Shown here piece by piece: positions 7,922-39,333 of a stretch of DNA of 64,000 bases. Numbering within the stretch: the first letter of the stretch is position 1; every line of letters begins with the position of its first letter. Source of the stretch: Methanobacteriota archaeon (GTDB lineage Archaea; Halobacteriota; Bog-38; Methanoflorentales; Methanoflorentaceae). The DNA is taken from assembly GCA_963720465.1 (NCBI GenBank), contig OY970393.1, positions 2,240,001-2,304,000 of the forward strand, written 5' to 3'. Both the position numbers and the translations under genes were made by a program. A model generated the notes under the pieces. The model did not search any database, had not been told where the DNA came from, and saw only the letters and a list, made by a program, of their open reading frames with translations.

Positions 7922-9337
7922 CTATTGCGGTTCCGAAAGCGAGAACTCCTCGTGAAGACTCTCCACAGCGCGACGCACTGAATCTCGTCTCAAAACGAAA
8001 GAGACGTTATGCTCGGTGGATCCTTGGCTGATCATGATGACGCTGACATTGATACTTCCCATGCGGCTGAAAATCCTGCCCACTATGCCCGGCGTTCCTG
8101 CCATTCGAGAGCCAACGACGGCTATTGCGCTCACGTCCTCGTTACACGAAATCTCTTTGATGACGTTGCTATTAAACTCATTCTCTAGCTCGTGCAGAGC
8201 ATTCAAGGCGCCGCTCAAATGTTGCTCCTCGACAAGCACTGATATGTTCGATTCACTCGATCCCTGACTTATCATAATGATATTAACGCCTGCGTCGGCA
8301 AGCTTCGCGAACACGTGGGCCGCGACGCCAATGGTCCCCGCCATTCCGGCGCCTGATAAGGTAACAAGAGCGACGTTGTTAACCGCCGTTACTGCTTTAA
8401 CGAGGCTTTCATCATTGGCGACCGTATGAACGATAGTTGTGTTCGCGCCGTTAGGGTTGAATGTGTTCTTTACACGCACGGGAATACCCTTAGTTACAGC
8501 CGGTTCAATTGTTTTCGGGTGTATAACCTTCGCTCCAAAATAAGAGAGCTCCATCGCCTCAGCGTAAGACACCTGTGGAAGCGTACGGGCGTTAGAAACG
8601 AGCTTAGGATCTGCGGTCATGATACCGTCAACGTCGGTCCAAATCCATATTTCGTCAGCTTCGACCGCGCTTCCGACGATTGATGCTGTATAGTCTGACC
8701 CGCCTCGGCCTAGGGTTGTGATGATGTTGTGAATGTTGTACGCGATAAAACCGGTGACGACCGGCACGATGCCCACCTTGAGAAGAGGCACAAGCCGCTC
8801 GTAGACTCGCTGTTCCGTGATTTCCGTAGGGCGCGCGCCACGGTGCTTACTATCGGTTATGATGCCCGCTTCTCCACCCGTCAAAAAGACTGACTGGACT
8901 TTGAGCGATTTCAGTGCGCCAGAGACGATCGGAGCAGACAGCCGCTCACCGAAAGACGAAACGTAATCATACGATCGGTCAGTGAGTTCGCCAAGGTGGT
9001 ATATACCTGTAAGCGCGTTTTTTAGCTCTTCTAGCCGGGTCTCTATCTCTGATATGACTTCGGTAATGATCATCTCATCTTCGATTGCGGCGTAAGTGGC
9101 GTCGAAATGCCTCTTAGCTACTAGGTGAACGAACTCTGCGACCTCGGTAATCTCGGCATATTCGCTGGTCAACCGCTCTGCTGTGGTTTGAAGCTCATCC
9201 GTCAAGCCAGACATCGCAGAAACAACGACAGCAATCTCGTTTCCCTCATCATAATAGCTTCGCACAAGCTCTCCGACCTGCCTCATCCTTGTGCCATCGG
9301 CGACCGATGTGCCGCCGAATTTCATCACGTATCTCAT
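7922..9337 (-). CDS. lysC: Aspartate kinase with two ACT domains
   Basis: KFGGTSV, VVVSAM, TLGRGGSDYTA and WTDVDG motifs. Confidence 0.96.
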   Translation of the reverse strand: MRYVMKFGGTSVADGTRMRQVGELVRSYYDEGNEIAVVVSAMSGLTDELQTTAERLTSEYAEITEVAEFVHLVAKRHFDATYAAIEDEMIITEVISEIETRLEELKNALTGIYHLGELTDRSYDYVSSFGERLSAPIVSGALKSLKVQSVFLTGGEAGIITDSKHRGARPTEITEQRVYERLVPLLKVGIVPVVTGFIAYNIHNIITTLGRGGSDYTASIVGSAVEADEIWIWTDVDGIMTADPKLVSNARTLPQVSYAEAMELSYFGAKVIHPKTIEPAVTKGIPVRVKNTFNPNGANTTIVHTVANDESLVKAVTAVNNVALVTLSGAGMAGTIGVAAHVFAKLADAGVNIIMISQGSSESNISVLVEEQHLSGALNALHELENEFNSNVIKEISCNEDVSAIAVVGSRMAGTPGIVGRIFSRMGSINVSVIMISQGSTEHNVSFVLRRDSVRRAVESLHEEFSLSEPQ

Positions 9338-14920: not shown

Positions 14921-15253
14921 AAGGTCGTCGTGCTGCGGTTTTTTTTGGCGGAGATTGCGACGCTCGTATCATCTTTGCGAGAGCTCTGAGCGGTTTTTGT
15001 AACTGCATCGTCTTGGAAATCAGCTAGAATGTTGAAAGCTGTGCGTGGAAAAAGGATTCTAAAATAGCCCGCAGCACAGCGTGACACGGGCGCCGGCCCC
15101 GTAAAAAAAGCGGAAGGATTATTAAACAAGAGCCACACAAAAAAATATAACTATAATTATAAAGATATTGTTTGCATCGACATGCTGACATAACTGTGCC
15201 ATTCGGACTGAAAACAATTTATAGTCCGCTCGCGGAAAAAAACAACGATCGCA

Positions 15254-16465
15254 ATGTTGAAAAGACACGGACCGACAGAGAGAAAATTACTCATTGGTCT
15301 TTCGGTGGCGCTTATAATTTTGATGTGCTGCTCCGCAACGGGCGTTGCGGCGGCGCAGCCATCAGCGTCTTCGGCCACAACCACGGCTGCGAGCTCGAAA
15401 TACCCGCCGTATCCGGTGAACCTTTACGAGTTTTATCTGTCGACCTGCCCGCATTGCCAGGCGCTCGCGCCGCACATTGCCGCACTGAAAGCCGAATATC
15501 CAACATTGCACGTGTATCAGTACGAAACGTCAAATTCTGCGAATTACAGCCTTTTTCAGACGTTCCAGAGCGCGTACGGAGTGAAGTTTGACACCGTCCC
15601 TAGCGTTTTTGTCGGAACGCAGTTTTGGCAATCGGACCTTGACGCGCCGCAGATTGCAGCAGCTGTTGCGCAAGCCATTCAACACGGAGCGACAGGCAAG
15701 GGTGACACAATAACCGGCAACTCTGTGCCAATGCCGAAACCAGGGACCCAGGATTCGACTACCGCTGGGACATTAGTGAATACGCCGCCTCTGCCACTGC
15801 CGCTTTTCATCACGACCGGCATCATAAGCGGCATGAATCCGTGCGTCTTTTCGGTCCTCATATTTTTGATGGGGACGATCGCTCTCACAGGTTCGCGTGC
15901 GCGAGCCCTTGCCATTGGCGTGACTTACATCGCGACGGTGTTCATCGTCTTCTTCCTTTCGGCACTTGCTATTGTGCAGTTCGTTCAAGTCATAGGCCTA
16001 CAGAACTTAGACCTGACTAAGACCGTGATTGGCATTTTCCTCCTCGTCGTTGGTATCGTATCGATCAAGGATTTCTTTTGGTACAACCGCTGGTTCAGTT
16101 TTAAGATCCCAACCTTCACGAAACACAGCATCAGCACTCTCGGGAACACCGGGTCTTTTCTTGCTATTATAGGGCTCGGCATCATCGCGACGATTGCCGC
16201 TTTGCCGTGCACGCTCGGTCCGTTTACCTTCTTCTCCACCACCTATTTGACCAGCATGGCCGCGATGCAATACAACCTCTACGTTGCCCTCTTCGCATTA
16301 GCATTCATCATACCGATGATCATCGTTTTTGTTGCCATATACGCCGTCAAGGTGGGAACGGACAGGGCAGAAGCATGGAGAATGCAATCAGCGCGCTATA
16401 TGAGGCTAGTGGCCGGGGTCCTAATGGTCACGTTTGGTCTCCTGCTCGTGCTCAAAGTGTTCTAA
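15254..16465 (+). CDS. Secreted thioredoxin-like domain fused to a CcdA/DsbD-type membrane domain
   Basis: Signal peptide; CPHC motif; NPC and LPC in transmembrane helices. Confidence 0.82.
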   Translation: MLKRHGPTERKLLIGLSVALIILMCCSATGVAAAQPSASSATTTAASSKYPPYPVNLYEFYLSTCPHCQALAPHIAALKAEYPTLHVYQYETSNSANYSLFQTFQSAYGVKFDTVPSVFVGTQFWQSDLDAPQIAAAVAQAIQHGATGKGDTITGNSVPMPKPGTQDSTTAGTLVNTPPLPLPLFITTGIISGMNPCVFSVLIFLMGTIALTGSRARALAIGVTYIATVFIVFFLSALAIVQFVQVIGLQNLDLTKTVIGIFLLVVGIVSIKDFFWYNRWFSFKIPTFTKHSISTLGNTGSFLAIIGLGIIATIAALPCTLGPFTFFSTTYLTSMAAMQYNLYVALFALAFIIPMIIVFVAIYAVKVGTDRAEAWRMQSARYMRLVAGVLMVTFGLLLVLKVF

Positions 16466-16655
16466 GGCAGGCTAGTCTTTCGGTAGCGCAGCCTCGCGAG
16501 GCGCTTCTCAAGCCGTCCTGCTGACAGCTGCGTGGTTTTTTTAGCATAGTCGAGTTAAGCCGGACTATTGCGCGCGGCGACTATAGTTATGTTAAAGGCC
16601 GTGAGCAAACTCACGTCGACAAGGAAACGACAAGACCAAGTATCTTGTCTGCTTT

Positions 16656-17234
16656 ATGGCATCACGTCGTGATTCGATGCATCACACATATCGAGACGAA
16701 GCCGAAAGGCGAACGTGGCAGAACCCTGAAATGATTCTTGCGGAAGTTGGGGTCACGGTCGGCGATGTGTTTATAGATTTGGCCTGCGGTTTTGGGTTTT
16801 TTGCGATTCCCGCAGCAAAAATAGTTGGCCCGAAAGGTGTCGTTTGCGGCGTTGACATTGACAAAGAAGCTTTGGAAGAACTACGTGAAAAAGCTGCGCT
16901 TGTCGGCCTGCGAAATCTGCGGCTAACACTCGCCGCGGCAGAAGATGTCGTTCTGTGCGAGCAGTGCGCTGATAAAGTGTTCGTTGGGATAGCGCTTCAC
17001 GATTTCAAAGATCCGCTCAAGGTTTTGCAGAACGTGAAGAGGGCCCTCAAAACGGGCGGCAGATTGGTAAATCTAGATTGGAAGAAAGAGCAAACGCCTT
17101 TCGGCCCTCCTCTCGAAATACGGTTCAGTGAGAGCGAAGCCGTTTCTCTCATCGAAAGAGCAGGATTTAAAGTCGTCTCAGTAAAAGATTCAGGGCCCTA
17201 TCACTACATGATTTCAGCGAATTTGCTTCAGTAG
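16656..17234 (+). CDS. Class I SAM-dependent methyltransferase
   Basis: DLACGFG motif I; LHD...LKTGGRL and GPP motifs. Confidence 0.88.
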   Translation: MASRRDSMHHTYRDEAERRTWQNPEMILAEVGVTVGDVFIDLACGFGFFAIPAAKIVGPKGVVCGVDIDKEALEELREKAALVGLRNLRLTLAAAEDVVLCEQCADKVFVGIALHDFKDPLKVLQNVKRALKTGGRLVNLDWKKEQTPFGPPLEIRFSESEAVSLIERAGFKVVSVKDSGPYHYMISANLLQ

Positions 17235-17353
17235 ACTCGTGCTAGGCTCAAAACAGGCAGGAACACTTACTTTCTTCGCCAATTTTGATAATGTTATATC
17301 CTCTCGAACCCATTTATTAAGAAGAACGTCTAGATCAGCAAAGGAGTCTGGTT

Positions 17354-17581
17354 TTGCCGACTTATCCAGTCTCTATGTGTTTGGTCTGCAAGCATTATCG
17401 AAAAGCGCAGCGATGTGAAGTTTTTCCGGCACGAATACCTCAGGCCATTCTTACTGGCAGATTTGATCACAGAAAACGACACGACGGAGACCGTGGAATT
17501 AGATTTCAGCCAAGAGATGATGTCAGCCAAGTAGAGTTAGAAAGCATTTTAAGCATATTCGACAAAAAAACCGCTTTTTGA
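17354..17581 (+). CDS. Small CxxCxH...CxxFP protein of a type usually virus-associated
   Basis: CLVCKH-x5-CEVFP-xx-IP-xx-I-xx-G-xx-DH...GDRGIRF pattern. Confidence 0.65.
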   Translation: MPTYPVSMCLVCKHYRKAQRCEVFPARIPQAILTGRFDHRKRHDGDRGIRFQPRDDVSQVELESILSIFDKKTAF

Positions 17582-18300
17582 GCGCGGTTTTAACTTTAAA
17601 TCTGCAAGTGACGCCAGTGCGCGTGTAACAGTTTAGAGTTCTGCGAAATTGCCTAAACTCTCACTTTTGCCTGATTCAGGCGTGAAAATTGCCTAATTGT
17701 TCCGAGAAAAACGAGGGTCTTAGAAAATAGTTGCTATGCTTACCAAGCAAGGTTGAAGTTGAAGTGCTTAATTTTGTTACATGTATTCTTAATTAAAGTG
17801 GTTGCTAAAGTATTAATGCTATAATATAGATTCTTATATTATTACAATTTATATATTACTTATATTAATAATCTGAGAATACCATTTATTCGGATTTTTA
17901 CAAAAATTCGTAATATAATATTCAACTCTCATTTTAGCTAAAAAGTCCAAATTCGCGGTTATTAAGGTATCTTTTTTCCAATATAACTCAAAAAATATAG
18001 AAATCGTACGGTCTTGACCAAATAACTATGATTTTTTGGCTCTGCGCTATTTGCTGACGTCATATGAGAACGGAAATCGTAGTGATTAGTAGAAGAGGTC
18101 CTGAGGAAGATATCTCCAATTAGATCTGCATTCTAACACTTAGTTAATCCGTGGTGTTAACAATATGATACCAAAAATAGTCGTGAGAAATTCAATGATA
18201 TCAAAAACCAAAAAATTAGTTAATAGATGAGAGTAATTCTTTGTACCAGGGGTTTTTAGGCCACTAGCTCTCACTTTTATAAAAATAGCTGGAAAAAAAC

Positions 18301-18825
18301 TTAAAATGAAACCTTTCCATACGCTTCCCTCAAATCATCGTCTTTGAATTGAAGGTAGACCTGCGTTATGCTAAGGCTGGAATGCCCTAATAGCAGCTGT
18401 AAACCCGTAGATCCATTCCTGACCGTACTAAATGTATAGTAAAACTATGGCGAAGCGTGGGCGGATGGATCTGAACACCTATCATATTCCCGTATCTCTT
18501 GCTTAAGTTGGAAACTTGTGCTCGACTGATAGGGAAAATAGGTTGATCCTCAGGGGTATTTAGTGCTAAGACATAATCGAAGAGCATTTTGAGAGTTTCT
18601 TGGTCAAGAACTACCCTCCGCTGCCGCCCTCCCTTGGCTTTTCGTGTGTTCACTACGTTATTCTTGAATTCGATATCGTTCGGTGTGACATTGATGACTT
18701 CGCTCACTCGTACTCCGGTTCGCCACATGAACCGCACCAGCATAGTCCCGTTGACTGCACGTTTTGGCAGCATGCAGCATCTCATCGACCTGCTCTTTTT
18801 CAAGATAGTTGGGAATTTTGGTCAC
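18301..18825 (-). pseudogene. Frameshifted tyrosine recombinase, paralogue of 18993-19529
   Basis: Nearly identical peptide (WRTGVRVSEV, KAKGGRQR, ITQVYLQF) split by two frameshifts; HPHTLRH changed to HPPTLRH. Confidence 0.88.
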
Positions 18826-18992
18826 ATTTGACAAAGATATGTTTTGTTTAACCGCAAAAGCGATTCTTAGCCTGATTTGCCGTTTTTTCGATAAATTATA
18901 AAAAAAAGAAGAATTGATTTTAGCGTTATTTATAACACTGTTATAGGTGCTATAACTCTCACTTTTATAAAAAAAGCATTAAGAAAAAATGT

Positions 18993-19529
18993 TTAAAAAG
19001 CTACTTTTTCGTACGCTTCTCGTAGGTCATTATCGTTGAATTGAAGGTAAACCTGCGTAATGCTGAGGCTTGTATGCCCTAGCATGAGCTGTACACGCCT
19101 TAAATCTGTCCCGCCACGAACCATATTAATAGCAAAACTGTGTCGCAGAGTATGTGGATGTATATTAACCCCTGCCATATTTCCGTATTTTTTGACGATG
19201 CTAAATACTCGATTTCTTTGAATAGGAAAAACAGGTTGATCCTCTAGGATATTTAGTGCTAAAACATAGTCCGAAAGCATTTTGAGGGTATCTTGATCAA
19301 GCGGGACTCTCCGCTGCCGCCCTCCCTTAGCCTTTCTGATGTTAACAACACCGTTCTTATATTCAATATCCTTCGGGGTAACGTTTATGACCTCACTTAC
19401 CCGTACGCCGGTACGCCACATAAACCGGAGCAGTAAGTAATCCCGATGATTACAAGTTTTAGCAGCGTTGAGTATCTCATCGACCTGTTCTTTTTCAAGA
19501 TAATCGGGTATTTTAGTCACATGATACAA
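18993..19529 (-). CDS. Tyrosine recombinase, catalytic domain only (~178 aa; FimB/Xer-like)
   Basis: TGVRVSE (R), KGG (K), HTLRHS (HxxR), LGH and TQVY (Y); no N-terminal core-binding domain. Confidence 0.93.
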   Translation of the reverse strand: MYHVTKIPDYLEKEQVDEILNAAKTCNHRDYLLLRFMWRTGVRVSEVINVTPKDIEYKNGVVNIRKAKGGRQRRVPLDQDTLKMLSDYVLALNILEDQPVFPIQRNRVFSIVKKYGNMAGVNIHPHTLRHSFAINMVRGGTDLRRVQLMLGHTSLSITQVYLQFNDNDLREAYEKVAF

Positions 19530-20115
19530 AAGATAGGTTTTGTATCTTAAAGGTTGTCATTTTGGTCTTCTTTACGATGAGATCCTCCTAGTTTATACAA
19601 TGAGGACAATTTTGGGCTAACTGAAGCACTTTTCCAATAATTCAGTTTTTATAAAATAGTGAATATTTAATTTGATTGTGATTCCCATGGATTTCGTGAG
19701 TTTGTATGTTAAGCCATCTTTCAGGTTAACGAGAATGGGTTGAAACAAAAGTGAGAGTTGAGCCTGTCTATCTCCAGACAGCTAGGTATTTTCTGACAAG
19801 GCATCTTGGGTATTGCCTATCAATATTTGCGTCAGAGATTCGTGGCTCCGGTACCGCCGAAGTTTTTGGAATGACTAGTAAGACCAGCTCTTGAAAACAA
19901 CCTGCTGCTGACCTTCGTAACAACGTCAAGTCCGCACAAAGGAATAGGTAGCAAGTGAAAGTGAGAGTTAAATGGCGGAGCTGATGAAGCCGGAAACCCG
20001 AGCACTTCTACAGGTAGATTAGGCGGTAAACGCAAGTGCGGGTGCATAGAAGCAAAAGTGAGACTAGAGGTAAGTCCTTCTTGTTCGCCTTTTTGCTGAC
20101 CGGTCGCGTGCTGCG

Positions 20116-20418
20116 TCAACGCGTCTTGTCGTCTGGTGTATCCAGTGCGCTTAAAATGTAAGGTCTTGAGGACACCTTGTGGTATTTGGGTCCTCCACCC
20201 ATCGACAAAATCCCTATGTAGCCTGCCGCCAGTAACTCGTGGAGGGCTTCTTGGACTTCGAGCTTCGTCCCGTCGACTTTTTTCTGCACCTGCCACGAGC
20301 GAAGGCCTTCGCTGCTAGACTCATAGATGCTTCTCAAAACCTTCTTTTGAAGACCGGTCATCAAAGCCACTTCACCGGGACCGTCGTGCAGCATCGGATT
20401 TAGCATAGTGACACGCAC
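20116..20418 (-). CDS. Small winged-helix DNA-binding protein (probable)
   Basis: LQKKVL...EVQEALHELLAAGYI wHTH-like pattern. Confidence 0.5.
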   Translation of the reverse strand: MRVTMLNPMLHDGPGEVALMTGLQKKVLRSIYESSSEGLRSWQVQKKVDGTKLEVQEALHELLAAGYIGILSMGGGPKYHKVSSRPYILSALDTPDDKTR

Positions 20419-20830
20419 CTTTCGGGATTGACCGTGTTAGTTAATCGCATATAGCTCTCCTTGTTGGCACCACCGCTGCAGAAAAACAAGAGACTTAGAC
20501 GCCTAGCCGACCAAAAAGTTTCTGTGCCACGCGCGCCGGCACCCCCTTAGACCGGCTGACAGACGTGGTCAAAGGATGCTCGAATGGCGGTTTGTCTGCG
20601 TGCAAGAGCATTTATCAACCATCCCGAGGAAATGAAACTGAGCTGAGAACATGTTGTTACACGTTACCATACCCGACGCAGATACTGGTTGTCCCCGATA
20701 CAATTCTAACAACATCTTGCTTGGTGTCGATAGACGTAAGAAACGCATGATCTGGCGCAGTTTCTATGCGATCGTTGCCCCAAATAGCTTGGCGCTCGCG
20801 TACGAAGCTTATCGTGCATAGGGTGGTTAG

Positions 20831-21295
20831 ATGGAAATGGGTTCACAAGTGCCGGCATTCTGTCTTCCGGATAAGGCCGGAGAGCAGCGGTGTTTAAGCG
20901 ATTTCAAGGGTAAGTGGGTGGTCCTTTACTTCTACCCGAGAGACAACACCAGTGGCTGTACGAGAGAAGCTATGGATTTTAGCGAACAGCTACCGGATTT
21001 TGAGAAGCACAACGCAGCAATCATCGGAATAAGCCCTGATTCGCCTGCGAGTCATGAGAAATTCGCTGAAAAGCATCAACTTCGTGTAGTGCTTTTGAGT
21101 GACGAAAAGCATGAAGTGGCGGAAACGTATGACGTCTGGAAACTAAAACGCCTATACGGGAAAGAGTATCACGGCATTGAACGGAGCACCTTTCTCATAA
21201 ACCCAGAAGGGAAGCTGGCCCAGGCTTGGAGAAACGTGAAAGTGAGCGGCCACGCTGATGCTGTCAAACGAACCCTCGAAGCGTTCATACAATAA
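20831..21295 (+). CDS. bcp: Peroxiredoxin Bcp/PrxQ
   Basis: VLYFYPRDNTSGCTREA, GISPD and RSTFLI motifs. Confidence 0.93.
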   Translation: MEMGSQVPAFCLPDKAGEQRCLSDFKGKWVVLYFYPRDNTSGCTREAMDFSEQLPDFEKHNAAIIGISPDSPASHEKFAEKHQLRVVLLSDEKHEVAETYDVWKLKRLYGKEYHGIERSTFLINPEGKLAQAWRNVKVSGHADAVKRTLEAFIQ

Positions 21296-21433
21296 AAACG
21301 GCCTCAACGAGTCAGATCTGAATCTGGTAGTCGTCGCGAAGAAGCGAGGGCAGCCCTACAAACCCGATTGCAGTAGATTACGCAGAATTTACGAGTACCG
21401 CCGCCGATCCGCTCAAAGTAGGTCACAAAGAGG

Positions 21434-21742
21434 TTACCATTCCGGTTCGCCCTCTGTGCCAAATAAGCCGGAATAGAACAAGCCGTTGAAGCGATAGTCC
21501 TTGAGGTTGTCTGTAATCTCGTGCGATTCGTTGTTTTTGCTGCCCACTAACCTGCCATCTTCAAACCATCTGAGAGTGTCATAGCGGGAAAGCGCCAGAA
21601 TGACCTTCTGCTCAATGCGCTCTTCATCGGACCCTTCAGAACTCGCCGCTTTCACGTCGTCGATCGCCCATTTCGAAACGTCAGGTTTCAGCCACTGGAG
21701 GAATTCTCCCACTAGCCACGGGTACACGATAAGCGAGCGCAT
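21434..21742 (-). CDS. Hypothetical protein downstream of the methyltransferase (possibly a truncated restriction partner)
   Basis: 102 aa ORF starting 15 bp after the MTase stop; no recognisable motif. Confidence 0.4.
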   Translation of the reverse strand: MRSLIVYPWLVGEFLQWLKPDVSKWAIDDVKAASSEGSDEERIEQKVILALSRYDTLRWFEDGRLVGSKNNESHEITDNLKDYRFNGLFYSGLFGTEGEPEW

Positions 21743-21757
21743 GCTACTCTCTGCCTT

Positions 21758-23098
21758 TTAGGTGGACTCATCATCCTTCTTGAAGATTAAAACCTTTTCC
21801 TTTTGCATTATGTTGTACAGGCCAAAGATGGTCTTGTCGATGCTTCTTGTGAGTCGCAGTCCAATTCCGCTTGCGTGTTCCGTAATGAGCTCGGCAGATT
21901 GTAGTGACGTGCCGCCAAAGACGGCATTCCCAATAACGATCAGAGCGTATTTGTTTGGCTTCAATACGCGCATCATCTCGTCTAAACAGCCCTTTATGTC
22001 CTCATCGTAAAGGCGTACCCGGTCTTTCATCCGACCCCGCAACCCAATGAACTGTTCCCGGATCTCACTCGTATCAAATCCAAGGGCCTCAAGCGCGTGC
22101 GCATCGTTCTTGATATAATCGAGTGCAATCGAGTACGGAGGAGACGTGATTATACCATCGATGCTGTTATCCCGCACAGGCAGTGCGCGCGCGTCGCCGC
22201 GTTCAATAGTTGCACATCCCAGCGTTAGGCCGAGGTCCTTTCGGATCTGATCGTAGTCGGCAACCGACTGGACCATTAGTTTGGTTTTTGAGGCAAGTGC
22301 CGCAGCAGCGTCTTTTCTTCGTCGCACGCTATCGCTTAACGCTACCAGTTGGGCCAAGCGAAAGAAGTCCCCGACCCGTTGGTCTGTATCCACGGACATT
22401 GTCGACGTTGCTTCGTGCAGCGACGTGTTTGCCGCGTTTACTTTCGAAAGCTCCGCGCAGCGTTCTCGTATCTTGTCGATGACCTCGTGCGAGACGGTCT
22501 TGACCCTGCTCTGCAGAACGCACAGAGGCGAGGCATCGAACCCGACGCAGTTAACGCCCAATAATTGGGCCTCGAGCGCCGTCGTGCCGCTTCCGACAAA
22601 GGGATCCAAGACGGTGTCTCCCGGTCCCAGTCCGATTATGTTGAGCGCCGCTCGGACCAATTGCGGGTGGAATTTGCCTTTGTAGGGATATATCCAGTGT
22701 GTGAGATACTGGTTGACCGAACGCGTGCGATTTTTTCGCGAAATGTAAACGTAATCGGTGTCCTCCCCTCTGACCGTTTGAAAATATGCGAGCTGCCTCT
22801 TGAGTCGTTCATTATCGTCGACATCGAGCAGCCTGAAGCTCGAACACCCGTCGGTCATCTCGAAAACGGCTCCCAGAGACCGGAGTTCGAGGCCCGCTAG
22901 GATGAGTTCGTAAATGAACTGAACGTTGTCAAATAGGCGCGCCTGGTCGTGTAACGGGCTTTCTTCTTGTTTTTTCAAAGGTGCGTTGTTTGCAAGGCGT
23001 GACTTGTCGTTCACGTTATTTTCTGCCTCATAACCGTTTTTTAAATGCAAAGATAAAGTGTAGGTGACTTTATCGCTGAGCCGTACAGAGGATCCCAC
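21758..23098 (-). CDS. Amino-DNA methyltransferase (N4-C type, SPPY); true start likely downstream of the ORF start
   Basis: YPYKGKFHP; DPFVGSGTT (motif I) precedes ITSPPY (motif IV). Confidence 0.88.
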   Translation of the reverse strand: MGSSVRLSDKVTYTLSLHLKNGYEAENNVNDKSRLANNAPLKKQEESPLHDQARLFDNVQFIYELILAGLELRSLGAVFEMTDGCSSFRLLDVDDNERLKRQLAYFQTVRGEDTDYVYISRKNRTRSVNQYLTHWIYPYKGKFHPQLVRAALNIIGLGPGDTVLDPFVGSGTTALEAQLLGVNCVGFDASPLCVLQSRVKTVSHEVIDKIRERCAELSKVNAANTSLHEATSTMSVDTDQRVGDFFRLAQLVALSDSVRRRKDAAAALASKTKLMVQSVADYDQIRKDLGLTLGCATIERGDARALPVRDNSIDGIITSPPYSIALDYIKNDAHALEALGFDTSEIREQFIGLRGRMKDRVRLYDEDIKGCLDEMMRVLKPNKYALIVIGNAVFGGTSLQSAELITEHASGIGLRLTRSIDKTIFGLYNIMQKEKVLIFKKDDEST

Positions 23099-23496: not shown

Positions 23497-24081
23497 TTAG
23501 TTACTGTCCGCGATTGCGGTGCCATTATCCCAAGCCACGGCAGGGCTAATGTTGACACTCTTGATGACGACGTTGCTGTTGATAGCGACGTTGCTCTGGT
23601 CGTTGTCGCTTACGGTGTTATTGTTGCCAGTGACTGTTATGGTGTTTGTCTGGGTGATCTTTTGCGTGGTTGCAGTTGCTTGGCTGTTTCCACTCGCGCT
23701 CGCGGCCGCGGCTCCCTTAGTAGCGACTGCGGCTGGCGTAACGACTGCTGGGGCGACGACTCCAACGACTCCCGGCGTAACGGCTGCTGGCTTTGCCGCG
23801 TAGTAGACTGGCTTGTAGACTGGCTTAAAGACTGGCATTGCCGAGACGGTCTTTACTTCACAGCACTGAGTGACTACGCAGCACGCGACTGTTGGACAGC
23901 AGCATGTCGTGGGGCACGCACAGCTGCAGCACGTTGATGTCACGCAGCTCGTGCACTGAGCACATACCGTCGCTGCACTAGTGCTTGTCGTGGCCTTGGC
24001 GGCGCACTGGGCTGAAACTGTGCCCGTCGCTGCAAGTGCCACAAAAGCGAGCACTAATAGAGACACGATAACTTTTTTCAT
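23497..24081 (-). CDS. Secreted Cys-rich protein with a low-complexity N/S/T/V-rich C-terminus
   Basis: Signal peptide MKKVIVSLL...VSA; Cys cluster; GGAG RBS and TATA-like sequence upstream. Confidence 0.75.
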   Translation of the reverse strand: MKKVIVSLLVLAFVALAATGTVSAQCAAKATTSTSAATVCAQCTSCVTSTCCSCACPTTCCCPTVACCVVTQCCEVKTVSAMPVFKPVYKPVYYAAKPAAVTPGVVGVVAPAVVTPAAVATKGAAAASASGNSQATATTQKITQTNTITVTGNNNTVSDNDQSNVAINSNVVIKSVNISPAVAWDNGTAIADSN

Positions 24082-37971: not shown

Positions 37972-39333
37972 TCATTTTGGCGTTAGCTTTTGCGATTCAA
38001 TCCACGTCAGCAAGTTCTGTTTTTTCTTAAATTCGTCAATGCGTTTAATTAGAACTGCTAATAGGCCCCGAGCGATGAGGCGAAGATCATCGAGGAGTGA
38101 TTTCTCCTGCTTGCTTGTGATACTTCCCCCTCTATGAACAATCTTGCTTCTTATGTCATAAATCTCCAAGACTCTCGCTTTTAGCTGTAGCCGTTGTTCT
38201 AGCTCATCTTCCAAAAGGATCGCACACCCCTCGGCGATTGAAGCTCTGATCGAACTACCGTCGCCCGGCGTCAGGCAGTTTTCCAAGCACGTGACTAAAT
38301 TAACGAATTCAATCTCTGGTGTGTCTTGCCTTTGGGATGCAGCAAACCAGCGAATGCCAGCGAGAACTGTTTTTTGAAATGGCGTTGGTCGGCCAGTCTC
38401 TATTATTGCGGATACATTGAAAATGCCAAGAGCATTCATGGCCTTGATATCATCTTTGGTAAACTCAACGGGCATGTACGCCCCCGTGCGCCGGTTTGCT
38501 AAGTAAAAGGAATCATTAGTGGGTGAAAGAAGAACCGTCGTGCGATGACCTCCGGCCATCTCGCCCTGCAGCCGAACAGCCCCTTTGTAGTCTCTTGAAT
38601 GTATGAAAGATATGAAGTAGCTTAGCAGGTCAAGAATTTCCTGCGTCTGTTCCTCCGCTATTTCTATCGCTCTTTTCGATTCGGCCGTTATATGATATAT
38701 AGCGCAAACGGTGTCTTTAAGGGTCTCGATGCGCCCCCGCACAAATTCGTCACGGCCGATTTCACTTTTATCGCCCTGCGCACTTCTATTCACGAAGATC
38801 GTATTGATCTTTTCAAACAAGGCGCTCATTTGTGCGTTATTCATGTATTTTAAGCAAGTACGGCCGATTTTTAGCGAATTTCCACTTATGCTTGAAATGC
38901 CGGCGAGAGGGAGATATACTATCCACTCTGTTGACGCTTGCCGATCGAGATCAGCAACCAAGCCGCGCACCAGCTCGCGAACGTATTCAGCATCGGCTTC
39001 ACTGAGTGCTTTGGGCAAAGTACCAAAACCCTCACCTTCGACGATCTTCGAAAGTGGTTTTCCATATACCTCATTCATCTGATTTTCAACGTACTTGAGC
39101 GAGAGGCGATTCCACGGTTTCATTTGCAGAACATAATCAGCCAGTTGTTCGTGCCTCTTGTCTCCATCTTTATCCAAGCCAAAAAAATGCTGCCCGTCTT
39201 CCGTTGAAAACCACGTTTTTCCAGTTTTAAGAGCGTATTCAAAATCTTGGGTGTGTTCTGAATCTAAAACAACATTCAAAAAATCAACAACCTTTCTTGT
39301 TATCAATTCAGTCTTATCTACGTCTCGAGACAT
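37972..39333 (-). CDS. ApeA-like/MAE_28990-type HEPN domain protein (putative defence RNase)
   Basis: C-terminal 'IRWF...FVNLVTCLE...YDIRSKIVH' with the RxxxxH motif. Confidence 0.78.
   Translation of the reverse strand: MSRDVDKTELITRKVVDFLNVVLDSEHTQDFEYALKTGKTWFSTEDGQHFFGLDKDGDKRHEQLADYVLQMKPWNRLSLKYVENQMNEVYGKPLSKIVEGEGFGTLPKALSEADAEYVRELVRGLVADLDRQASTEWIVYLPLAGISSISGNSLKIGRTCLKYMNNAQMSALFEKINTIFVNRSAQGDKSEIGRDEFVRGRIETLKDTVCAIYHITAESKRAIEIAEEQTQEILDLLSYFISFIHSRDYKGAVRLQGEMAGGHRTTVLLSPTNDSFYLANRRTGAYMPVEFTKDDIKAMNALGIFNVSAIIETGRPTPFQKTVLAGIRWFAASQRQDTPEIEFVNLVTCLENCLTPGDGSSIRASIAEGCAILLEDELEQRLQLKARVLEIYDIRSKIVHRGGSITSKQEKSLLDDLRLIARGLLAVLIKRIDEFKKKQNLLTWIESQKLTPK

Follow-up and report, generated by a model that had tools for sequence, protein, structure and literature searches.

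Within a 64,000-nucleotide (nt) stretch of an archaeal chromosome (Methanobacteriota archaeon, contig OY970393.1, positions 2,240,001 to 2,304,000; here called the window), seven copies of the 13-nt sequence AAAAGTGAGAGTT, designated S, lie within 2.4 kb (17656-20066) around rec1, an intact gene for a tyrosine recombinase that consists of a catalytic domain alone. We propose, with confidence that falls a little short of even, that this locus is a resident array of self-contained mini-recombinase modules that are exchanged at S, in a genus of uncultured archaea of a peat methanogen lineage. The proposal draws on the linkage of S to recombinase genes across the genus, on the reassortment of flanking sequences at S between strains, and on a palindrome, designated P, that precedes the start codon of each recombinase gene. 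The P dyads went unnoticed in the initial annotation of the window and are new here, as is the finding that none of the 24 family genomes that were searched yielded a two-domain tyrosine recombinase.

The S array is a real, non-random feature of the window. At ≤2 mismatches, S matched the window 8 times against an expectation of 1.85, and 0 of 100 dinucleotide-preserving shuffles of the window had as many as 8; one of the matches, at 38170, lies apart and is unrelated. Across the genome (G000, the genome of the window, a single contig of 2,313,764 bp with 52% GC), all three exact S copies and five of the nine copies at ≤1 mismatch fall in this locus. The initial annotation had reported seven 13-bp sites, four pointing left (minus strand) and three pointing right (plus strand), and all seven were recovered with the positions, strands, and mismatches listed in Table 1. 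It had also described the exact copies at 18954 and 19747 as inverted repeats around the recombinase segment; they are indeed a perfect 13-nt inverted pair, enclosing rec1 (18993-19529, minus strand). An additional, decayed S (AACACTTACTTTC, 17262-17274) is found where relatives keep S.

The sites lie in an AT-rich island (30 to 42% GC, compared with 52% for the genome) whose edges form a 22-nt inverted repeat (82%; 17649-17670 and 20052-20073). Both recombinase copies in the window, rec1 and the decayed rec2, are followed 22 to 26 nt past the stop codon by TTTTTAT fused to S. The imperfect dyad annotated at 18940-18956 is present as GTTATAG-GTG-CTATAAC. Where an S is followed by another recombinase unit, it runs into three GTTATAA/GTTATAG repeats, which make two 7-3-7 palindromes; the palindromes at 18930-18956 may be a candidate binding site for another factor. 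A search of 15000-23000 for non-coding RNAs (Rfam, E ≤ 1) gave no match, and no tRNA that might serve as an attachment (att) target was found near the locus.

Table 1. Features of the recombinase locus, in window coordinates
Feature	Position	Strand	Remarks
Decayed S, 3 mismatches, between methyltransferase gene and orf75	17262..17274	-	Relatives have AAAAGTGAGTGTT in the same place, with the same right flank
orf75, small Cys-containing ORF between two S sites	17354..17581	+	Unit conserved in 41 loci, 355-384 bp
S, exact	17656..17668	-	Orthologous site kept in relatives, with AACTCTAAACT ~20 nt away
AT-rich non-coding units, ~30% GC, divided by degenerate S 17924	17669..18265	.	Homologous 570-610-bp units in relatives
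Degenerate S, 2 mismatches	17924..17936	-	Homologous to TTTTTATAAAAATGAGT in relatives
S, 1 mismatch, at end of decayed recombinase unit	18266..18278	-	
rec2 pseudogene, decayed second recombinase gene	~18300..18834	-	2 TGA, 1 TAG, and 1 TAA inside the match
Decayed rec2 dyad, TTGACAAAG-ATATG-TTTTGTTTAA	18828..18851	.	Intact 9-6-9 dyad in relatives
GTTATAA/GTTATAG repeats giving two 7-3-7 palindromes that adjoin S	18930..18956	.	Kept wherever another recombinase unit comes after S
S, exact, TTTTTAT before it, 26 nt past rec1 stop	18954..18966	-	
rec1, intact catalytic-domain-only tyrosine recombinase, 178 aa (175 aa from GTG 19520)	18993..19529	-	
P1 dyad of rec1, GATACAAAA-CCTATC-TTTTGTATC, 9-6-9, perfect arms	19523..19546	.	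Ends 3 nt before GTG 19520; contains TTG 19529
Upstream region of first-position unit, with TATA-like boxes	19547..19746	-	Common to relatives whatever recombinase type is first
S, exact, inverted relative to array, closes first recombinase unit	19747..19759	+	
S, 1 mismatch	19957..19969	+	194-197-bp unit between 19957 and 19747 found again in 5 loci
S, 2 mismatches, outermost, 50 nt from orf100 stop	20054..20066	+	Homologous to single inverted S of L057-type strains
orf100, conserved small flanking ORF	20116..20418	-	

We searched 41 related genomes for the recombinase family and found it in 37; a metagenome scan added 75 loci, giving 84 related loci in all, with 81 intact recombinase genes. 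The orthologous gene occupies one neighborhood in 8 genomes of the same genus and in about 70 metagenome contigs, in the order DUF2114, thioredoxin-like membrane protein, methyltransferase, orf75, recombinase(s), orf100, peroxiredoxin, orf102, and DNA methylase. The genus genomes share the same 13-mer in the same layout. Read in the recombinase direction, the common plan is orf100> ... S< (about 230 nt) rec> S> [rec> S>]x0-2 (AT-rich 570-610-nt unit) S> orf75< S> methyltransferase<. In 49 units, the first recombinase gene is preceded, at a distance of ≤420 nt, by an S in the orientation of the one at 19747.

S follows the last codon by 17 to 40 nt (median, 29) in 72 of the 81 intact recombinase genes; one contig ended before S could be assessed. 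In five further genomes of the genus, 11 of the 12 exact S copies are at this locus. The sites are thus specific to the locus and linked to the recombinase, as the initial annotation held, and the motif is neither common genome-wide nor absent near homologs. Its remark that a TATA-like box abuts S stands for both recombinase copies of the window and does not generalize: the seven bases before S read TTTTTAT in 58 of the 72 recombinase tails, while S sites that do not follow a recombinase gene have no such box; the box belongs to the tail of the recombinase unit.

Among 185,579 species genomes, the 20-mer TTTTTAT+S was found at 9 loci, 8 of them in metagenome-assembled genomes (MAGs) of this lineage; the ninth, in a Helicobacteraceae MAG, is probably a chance match. 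Viral contigs yielded neither this 20-mer nor relatives of the recombinase, and viral carriers of either were rejected on that account. Two complete genomes of the sister genus have an exact S ~4 kb downstream of the best recombinase homolog and on the same strand, past RDD, EamA-type, and TFE-like genes. Within the genus, the order and content of the array are kept at flanking-protein identities down to ~70%. That S stays at 13 of 13 positions while its flanks diverge argues for selection on S.

When every locus was cut at S and the pieces were clustered, a few kinds of unit kept recurring: those with a recombinase gene, the one with orf75 (41 copies), several AT-rich types, and short ones on the inverted side. 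Recombinase units number one to three per locus and vary in type and order. In the 35 loci with both an inverted S and orf75, the S> sites that separate the innermost S< from orf75 numbered 2 in 11 loci, 3 in 19, 4 in 2, 5 in 1, and 0 in 2. In a maximum-likelihood tree of 57 distinct recombinase proteins, the rec1 clade nearly always comes first in its locus and several rec2-like clades come later; a distinct clade of types B, C, D, and E is found in both positions, being first in G014, L119, L121, L097-L101, L088, and L096 and later in L051, L062, L063, and L064. L088 and L096 have a type C gene first and an A-like gene second. As for the AT-rich units, a search with a 62-sequence recombinase DNA profile (nhmmer, E ≤ 0.01) found no recombinase remnant in them, and we rejected the idea that they are decayed recombinase genes.

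The flanks of 294 S sites, compared by a four-gamete test, fell into 80 left and 86 right types that occur in 120 combinations, with 6 four-gamete quartets. The sequence after S belongs to few types, which combine freely with the gene type before S; the rec1 tail alone is joined to at least six different right-flank types. A comparison of L056, which has one unit, with L057 and L086, which have two, shows that the differing segment ends at S: L056 has a rec1-type gene and its tail as far as S, and then the flank that comes after the second unit in L057 and L086. Together, flank reassortment and the L056 junction argue that S is a recurrent breakpoint. Variants at S positions 10 to 13 follow the right flank slightly better than the left (residual entropy, 0.15 versus 0.27 bits), a difference too weak for the crossover to be placed. 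Because segments between S sites act as strain-variable units, "capture or cassette platform," after the capture and cassette ideas of the initial annotation, is a fair description of the locus, and units have probably accumulated there.

We then aligned the regions upstream of the recombinase start codons. A palindrome ends 0 to 15 nt before the start codon at every gene, and its arms differ by recombinase type yet stay complementary. In relatives, P of the rec2 type reads TTAACAAAA-CATATC-TTTTGTCAA; that of type B is TTTCCCAAAAT-GTGT-ATTTTCGGAAA, and that of type C is CCCAAAA-TATACC-TTTTGGG. Distant paralogs in the sister genus and in another family have TGCCGATAA-N6-TTTTCGGCA and TTCCGATAA-N6-TTATCGGAA. 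Among 81 distinct upstream regions, 62 have a 6-nt-spaced dyad and 53 score best at spacer 6; 14 scored at spacer 4, most of which are these dyads lengthened by a pair. The arms make up 25 distinct pairs, and just 2 of the 14 arm mismatches are G-T. Proteins of another family that are 40% identical are accompanied by a perfect 11-6-11 dyad, ATTTAACAAAA-N6-TTTTGTTAAAT, which is the layout of a 28-bp dif site. The length of 28 bp for dif is the one given in PMC5357621.

With its fixed 6-nt spacer and arms of 7 to 13 nt, as in Xer-type core sites, P is more readily explained as a DNA site to which a recombinase dimer binds, and less readily as an mRNA hairpin. Directly 5' of P lies a motif conserved across the recombinase family, CAAAATGRCAAnCTTTA, a putative transcription factor B recognition element (BRE)/TATA region; if it is one, P would sit between the TATA box and the start codon, in the position of an operator. 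Between the inverted S and P, a stretch of ~150 nt with TATA-like boxes is common to first-position units of any gene type, which means that whole modules (P, recombinase gene, tail, and S) have been exchanged behind a resident upstream region. A contig from an RNA library of a related strain spans rec1 and its surroundings, including the P region, with the AT-rich units lacking RNA cover; such a contig says nothing on expression level or transcript ends. In G022, near-identical paralogs 20 kb apart (L037 ~1870-1930 and L038 ~1720-1780) have the identical arms TTCCGATAA/TTATCGGAA around different spacers, gtgcag and ctatac. Some S sites have ACAAAA on their left, but its register relative to GTGAGAG varies; we did not rely on the idea that S is a half-P site.

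By fold and active site, Rec1 is a tyrosine recombinase: it matches PF00589 (E = 4.4e-37) and has the R-K-H-R-H/W-Y active site, with R43, K68, H126, R129, and H152 invariant and Y161 present in ≥90% of the rows when 30 relatives are aligned. The NCBIfam model that it matches best is XerA_Arch (NF040815; E = 6.5e-45; 153.7 bits against a cutoff of 220), matched over profile positions 92 to 263 of 263, and its best solved relative is Pyrococcus XerA (4a8e, residues 101 to 276 of 292), with which all six catalytic residues align. The AlphaFold model of Rec1 (pLDDT 85.6) is closest in fold to XerA 5hxy, and the TM-scores (0.83 on the query, 0.54 on the target) show that Rec1 covers the catalytic half only. 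The database holds 527 relatives of similar length, the best 120 of which are 65 to 99% identical and 134 to 229 amino acids (aa) long; the closest among longer proteins are bacterial XerD-like, at ≤39% identity. Partial coverage of the XerA profile and the short relatives argue that Rec1 stands alone as a catalytic domain, without the N-terminal SAM-like core-binding domain of two-domain Xer proteins. It is not an integron integrase, since TIGR02249 and NF011946 align with it over short stretches only and score 84 and 58 bits (cutoffs, 265 and 435), nor does it belong to the FimB/FimE family (62 and 57 bits with NF007371 and NF007370; cutoffs, 222 and 221). The possibility that orf75 or orf100 separately encodes the N-terminal domain was rejected, there being no meaningful Pfam, NCBIfam, or PHROG match for either. 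The second gene, rec2, is intact in G009 and G011. In some recombinase alleles (L027 ~8617-8629; G011 rec2), the G-V-R-V-S-E codons around the first catalytic arginine read GGAGTGAGAGTTAGCGAG, placing 11 nt of S within the gene; this may be a coincidence of codon choice.

All PF00589 matches in G000 are frames of ≤189 aa, and the two intact genes are rec1 and a paralog at 1,889,956, for which just one other genome of the genus has an ortholog. G011, a complete genome, has no intact tyrosine recombinases apart from the two at this locus. A search for two-domain tyrosine recombinases by PF02899 found none in 24 genomes of the family, including G000 (4 single-contig; completeness, 59 to 91%), whereas the domain turned up in 13 of the 17 genomes from the phylum's other families. 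All but one of the PF00589 frames in the sister genus are ≤230 aa, the exception being 286 aa; its genomes contain 58 and 86 mini-recombinase matches, many of them fragments and often clustered (G022, 1.51-1.59 Mb). No further copy of S plus recombinase was found in G000, and 28 distant paralogs had no flanking inverted repeats of ≥12 nt other than one 12-nt repeat with 1 mismatch at one paralog. Given no dispersed copies and no shared ends among paralogs, an insertion sequence-like or transposon unit with terminal inverted repeats was rejected. Likewise, the distant paralogs share no common downstream motif, and a tail motif seen in the sister genus proved to be part of duplicated genes (3+1 copies).

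These features can be joined in a single scheme. S (AAAAGTGAGAG[T/C]T) would be the shared junction site of a chromosomal module array, in which each module has a P dyad that would lie between a TATA-like box and the start codon, a XerA-like catalytic-only recombinase of 175 to 178 aa, a tail rich in T, and S. Together with short non-coding units and the orf75 unit, the modules stand head to tail between directly repeated S sites, and one or a few opposite S sites close the array upstream of the first recombinase gene. The recombinases may bind and cut S and exchange DNA there: a unit would be deleted when direct repeats recombine in cis, and inserted or replaced when the partner is an excised circle or another chromosome. 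Deletion, insertion, and replacement at S would account for the changes in module number, type, and order between strains. P would be the cognate site to which each type of recombinase binds with high affinity, and may act as an autoregulatory operator, a full core site, or both.

Several observations weigh against this scheme. No direct trace of recombination was seen: we compared 17200-20500 with contigs from four runs (two that are probably the source, an independent one from peat, and an RNA library), and these contigs, a form in which all 20 of the sequencing runs exist and which misses rare variants, show no deletion, circle, inversion, or other strand-changing joint attributable to S. 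(One contig joint that "goes back 695" reflects rec1/rec2 similarity, and one loose end is adapter-like.) Eight of the 80 assessable recombinase genes have no S after them, namely four rec1-type genes of one sub-lineage, one that precedes a fragment, and three long-branch type D genes. The S logo, built from 193 distinct sites, is informative in 13 positions only, plus a purine-A preference just after them; this is a single arm with no dyad, unlike ordinary tyrosine recombinase core sites. A pure insertion/deletion model leaves the opposite orientation of the upstream S unexplained. G008 (91% complete) retains three exact S copies though the recombinase at the locus is frameshifted and no intact tyrosine recombinase was found. 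Nor is S the sole junction: a second class of breakpoints falls at the left edge of P, and in L051 a type B unit has taken the place of most of a rec2 gene, within which its left junction falls. Reassortment at a conserved 13- to 20-mer could also arise from homologous recombination.

The initial annotation suggested a multi-site system that re-aims a promoter, in the manner of a shufflon, such that opposed S sites would flip the recombinase with its promoter or a set of nested segments. The perfect inverted S pair around rec1 and the inverted S upstream of so many first genes would suit such a switch, as would an S< ... S> bracket around a recombinase and three other genes in the sister-genus-like contig L106; the asymmetry of S, too, recalls shufflon sfx sites. 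Against it, all 139 recombinase hits are co-oriented within their locus (84 loci), and the orientation of the flanks relative to the recombinase block is constant (orf75, 45/45; methyltransferase, 33/33; orf100, 21/21; orf102, 15/15), so that no inverted allele was seen in 45 orf75-flank and 21 orf100-flank loci. There are also no swappable coding segments and no evident outward-facing gene to be controlled, and the contigs, from which rare variants drop out, show no strand-changing joint. With promoter re-aiming thus unsupported, we think a switch very unlikely, and the initial annotation was probably wrong on inversion. S could also be a protein-binding or transcription signal, for example for the orf100 protein or as a promoter-proximal or terminator element, with homologous recombination producing the mosaicism. 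Its single asymmetric arm would agree with this, as would its fusion, after recombinase genes, to a consensus-like TATA box (TTTTTATAAAA) 110 to 120 nt upstream of the next recombinase start, its persistence in G008 without an intact recombinase, and the conserved presence of orf100 nearby. However, S sites elsewhere in the array have no TATA box and often point at gene 3' ends, the complete sister-genus genomes keep an exact S on the coding strand downstream of the best homolog with orf100 not found in the locus, and strain breakpoints fall at S; a signal function as the whole explanation therefore seems doubtful to us, and distinctly so.

A further possibility, unlikely in our judgment though less so than those just discussed, is that the locus is a graveyard of small plasmid- or virus-like elements that integrated time and again at one attB; S would be their att core, the recombinases their integrases, and the AT-rich units and orf75 their decayed cargo, with the array now largely inert. 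The AT richness of the island, the decay of rec2 in the window, the many fragmented family members of the sister genus (58 and 86 matches), the resemblance of orf75 to viral small proteins in Atlas (a lead only), and the variable DNA of 54 bp to ~4 kb between the inverted S and orf100 (L026-L028, L069-L073) could all be read in this way. Order and content are nonetheless conserved across the genus, with S intact amid diverging flanks; the recombinase-plus-S combination was found neither on viral contigs nor elsewhere in the genomes, and the AT-rich units gave no nhmmer match to a recombinase remnant. Finally, rec1 might encode a minimal Xer system, a chromosome-dimer resolvase for which P would be the dif site and S an accessory or polarity element, or a site exploited in the manner of integrative mobile elements exploiting Xer (IMEX). 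Since no two-domain enzyme was found in the family, a Xer-like housekeeping role is conceivable: PF02899 was found in none of the 24 genomes, 4 of them single-contig, PF00589 frames are short, G011 has its intact enzymes at this locus alone, the best profile, sequence, and fold matches are to XerA, P has dif-like geometry, the gene neighborhood is conserved, and xerS adjoins difSL as a single module (PMC5357621). Yet P accompanies every paralog, the dozens of the sister genus among them, and is therefore not a site that occurs once per chromosome; the gene in G008 is broken; the locus lies ~103 degrees from the main orc1 gene in the complete genus genomes G000 and G011, not opposite it; and the core-binding domain that defines Xer is missing. 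We rate this role as improbable. The mirrored orientation of the sites also prompted the idea of a replication origin with origin recognition boxes (ORB), which we rejected with the orc1/cdc6 genes far away at 1.59 and 1.92 Mb; repeats adjoining orc1 are unlike S, and GC skew is flat and uninformative.

A broader statement would be that canonical XerA has been replaced in this family by single-domain mini-Xer modules of gene plus dyad, that rec1 with its P is the chromosome resolution system of the genus, that the S array is the first archaeal chromosomal counterpart of dif-module or IMEX-type exploitation, and that specificity evolves by co-variation of dyad and protein. We consider this combination rather unlikely and offer it as speculation.

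Among known systems, dif modules and integrons come closest to the array in how it works and XerA comes closest to its enzymes, but it departs from each in the features that define it. As in integrons, units that end in recombination-type sites follow a recombinase gene, all in one direction, with a resident promoter region before the first unit; unlike integrons, the array lacks the IntI-specific insertion, S is a conserved asymmetric 13-mer and not an attC palindrome, the cassettes are mostly recombinase genes, and the content is largely conserved in the genus. Recombinase-in-trio (RIT) elements consist of three distinct full-length recombinases within long terminal inverted repeats and are mobile and multi-copy. 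The array shares with them tandem tyrosine recombinase genes bracketed by inverted repeats, and differs in having one to three mini-recombinases, 13-nt sites also between the genes, and a single fixed locus. Shufflon sfx and fim sites are asymmetric, with one conserved arm. In shufflons and FimB/FimE systems, as here, opposed sites flank the recombinase, which is small (Rec1 is about the size of FimB/E and weakly matches DNA-invertase models); our 45 and 21 flank-anchored loci, however, have no inverted allele, alternative coding segments are lacking, and the variation is in unit number and order.

The pdif sites of Acinetobacter are full XerC-6-XerD dyads, alternate in orientation, and are served by the host XerCD. 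S, in contrast, is one-armed, forms direct repeats on each side of the array, and is chromosomal and fixed, and the modules themselves encode recombinases. What the two have in common is site-bounded modules that are shuffled between strains; two reports describe pdif modules as discrete, bounded by short Xer-type sites, and shuffled between replicons or strains (PMC6449649, PMC13141974). The Xer modules (XerS/difSL, XerH/difH, XerA/dif) resemble the locus in the catalytic domain, which is closest to XerA, and in having, next to the gene, a dyad whose spacer is 6 nt, just as xerS and difSL adjoin to form one module (PMC5357621). Here there is no core-binding domain, one to three tandem paralogs each have a dyad, and a separate asymmetric 13-nt site is repeated five to eight times. 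Archaeal dif sites are reported not to be adjacent to xerA (PMC2958812), and a review of archaeal tyrosine recombinases lists several uncharacterized families with a single PF00589 domain (PMC8371274). The available text of the literature on archaeal tyrosine recombinases, PMC8371274 included, contains no description of the array, of S, or of the start-codon dyads; Table S1 of that paper may place these proteins in one of the uncharacterized families.

Of the two small ORFs (open reading frames) that flank the array, orf75 has no Pfam or NCBIfam match, and its nearest Atlas clusters are viral hypothetical small proteins. It belongs to a small multi-copy family of ~65- to 80-aa proteins with a CxxC motif. 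G000 has three distant paralogs (14340, 1363338, 1456087), none near a recombinase gene, and some members of the genus, such as G010, G012, and G016, have five to six copies. The S beyond orf75 is inverted only in G008 and L067; in G008 (L031 9739-13169), 3.4 kb of extra genes (one ion-channel-like, one for a secreted protein, and one other) lie between the inverted S and the methyltransferase gene. On the other side, orf100 has no family match in Pfam, NCBIfam, or PHROG; reading its sequence by eye rather than with a tool, we think that it may encode a winged-helix fold. The stretch between the inverted S and orf100 in G009 (L026 5000-7300, parts of which are N) includes a gene for a 271-aa secreted protein and a 180-aa ORF with a recombinase-like fragment. 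Farther out, the window has an intact gene for a 446-aa N6/N4 DNA methylase (21758-23098, minus strand), which is in four pieces in G011 (L027 13720-14802), and a 194-aa ORF (23497-24081, minus strand) with a signal-like start and long low-complexity stretches rich in Cys, Thr, Ala, and Val.

Tyrosine recombinases are thought to need an N-terminal core-binding domain as a DNA clamp, and the FimB/E-type invertases are the known small exceptions, dependent on host factors. Here, the tyrosine recombinases of an entire archaeal family appear to be catalytic domains alone, every one of them paired with a dyad whose arms co-vary with the protein, and in one genus they stand in a fixed array with a second, shared, asymmetric site between them. 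If these enzymes act at the sites, no smaller self-contained recombinase-plus-site modules would be known from archaea; they would also provide a natural series of orthogonal recombinase/site pairs, and would allow a test of how chromosome dimers are handled without XerA; if they do not act there, the array would still be a clean case of modular mosaic evolution at a conserved junction.

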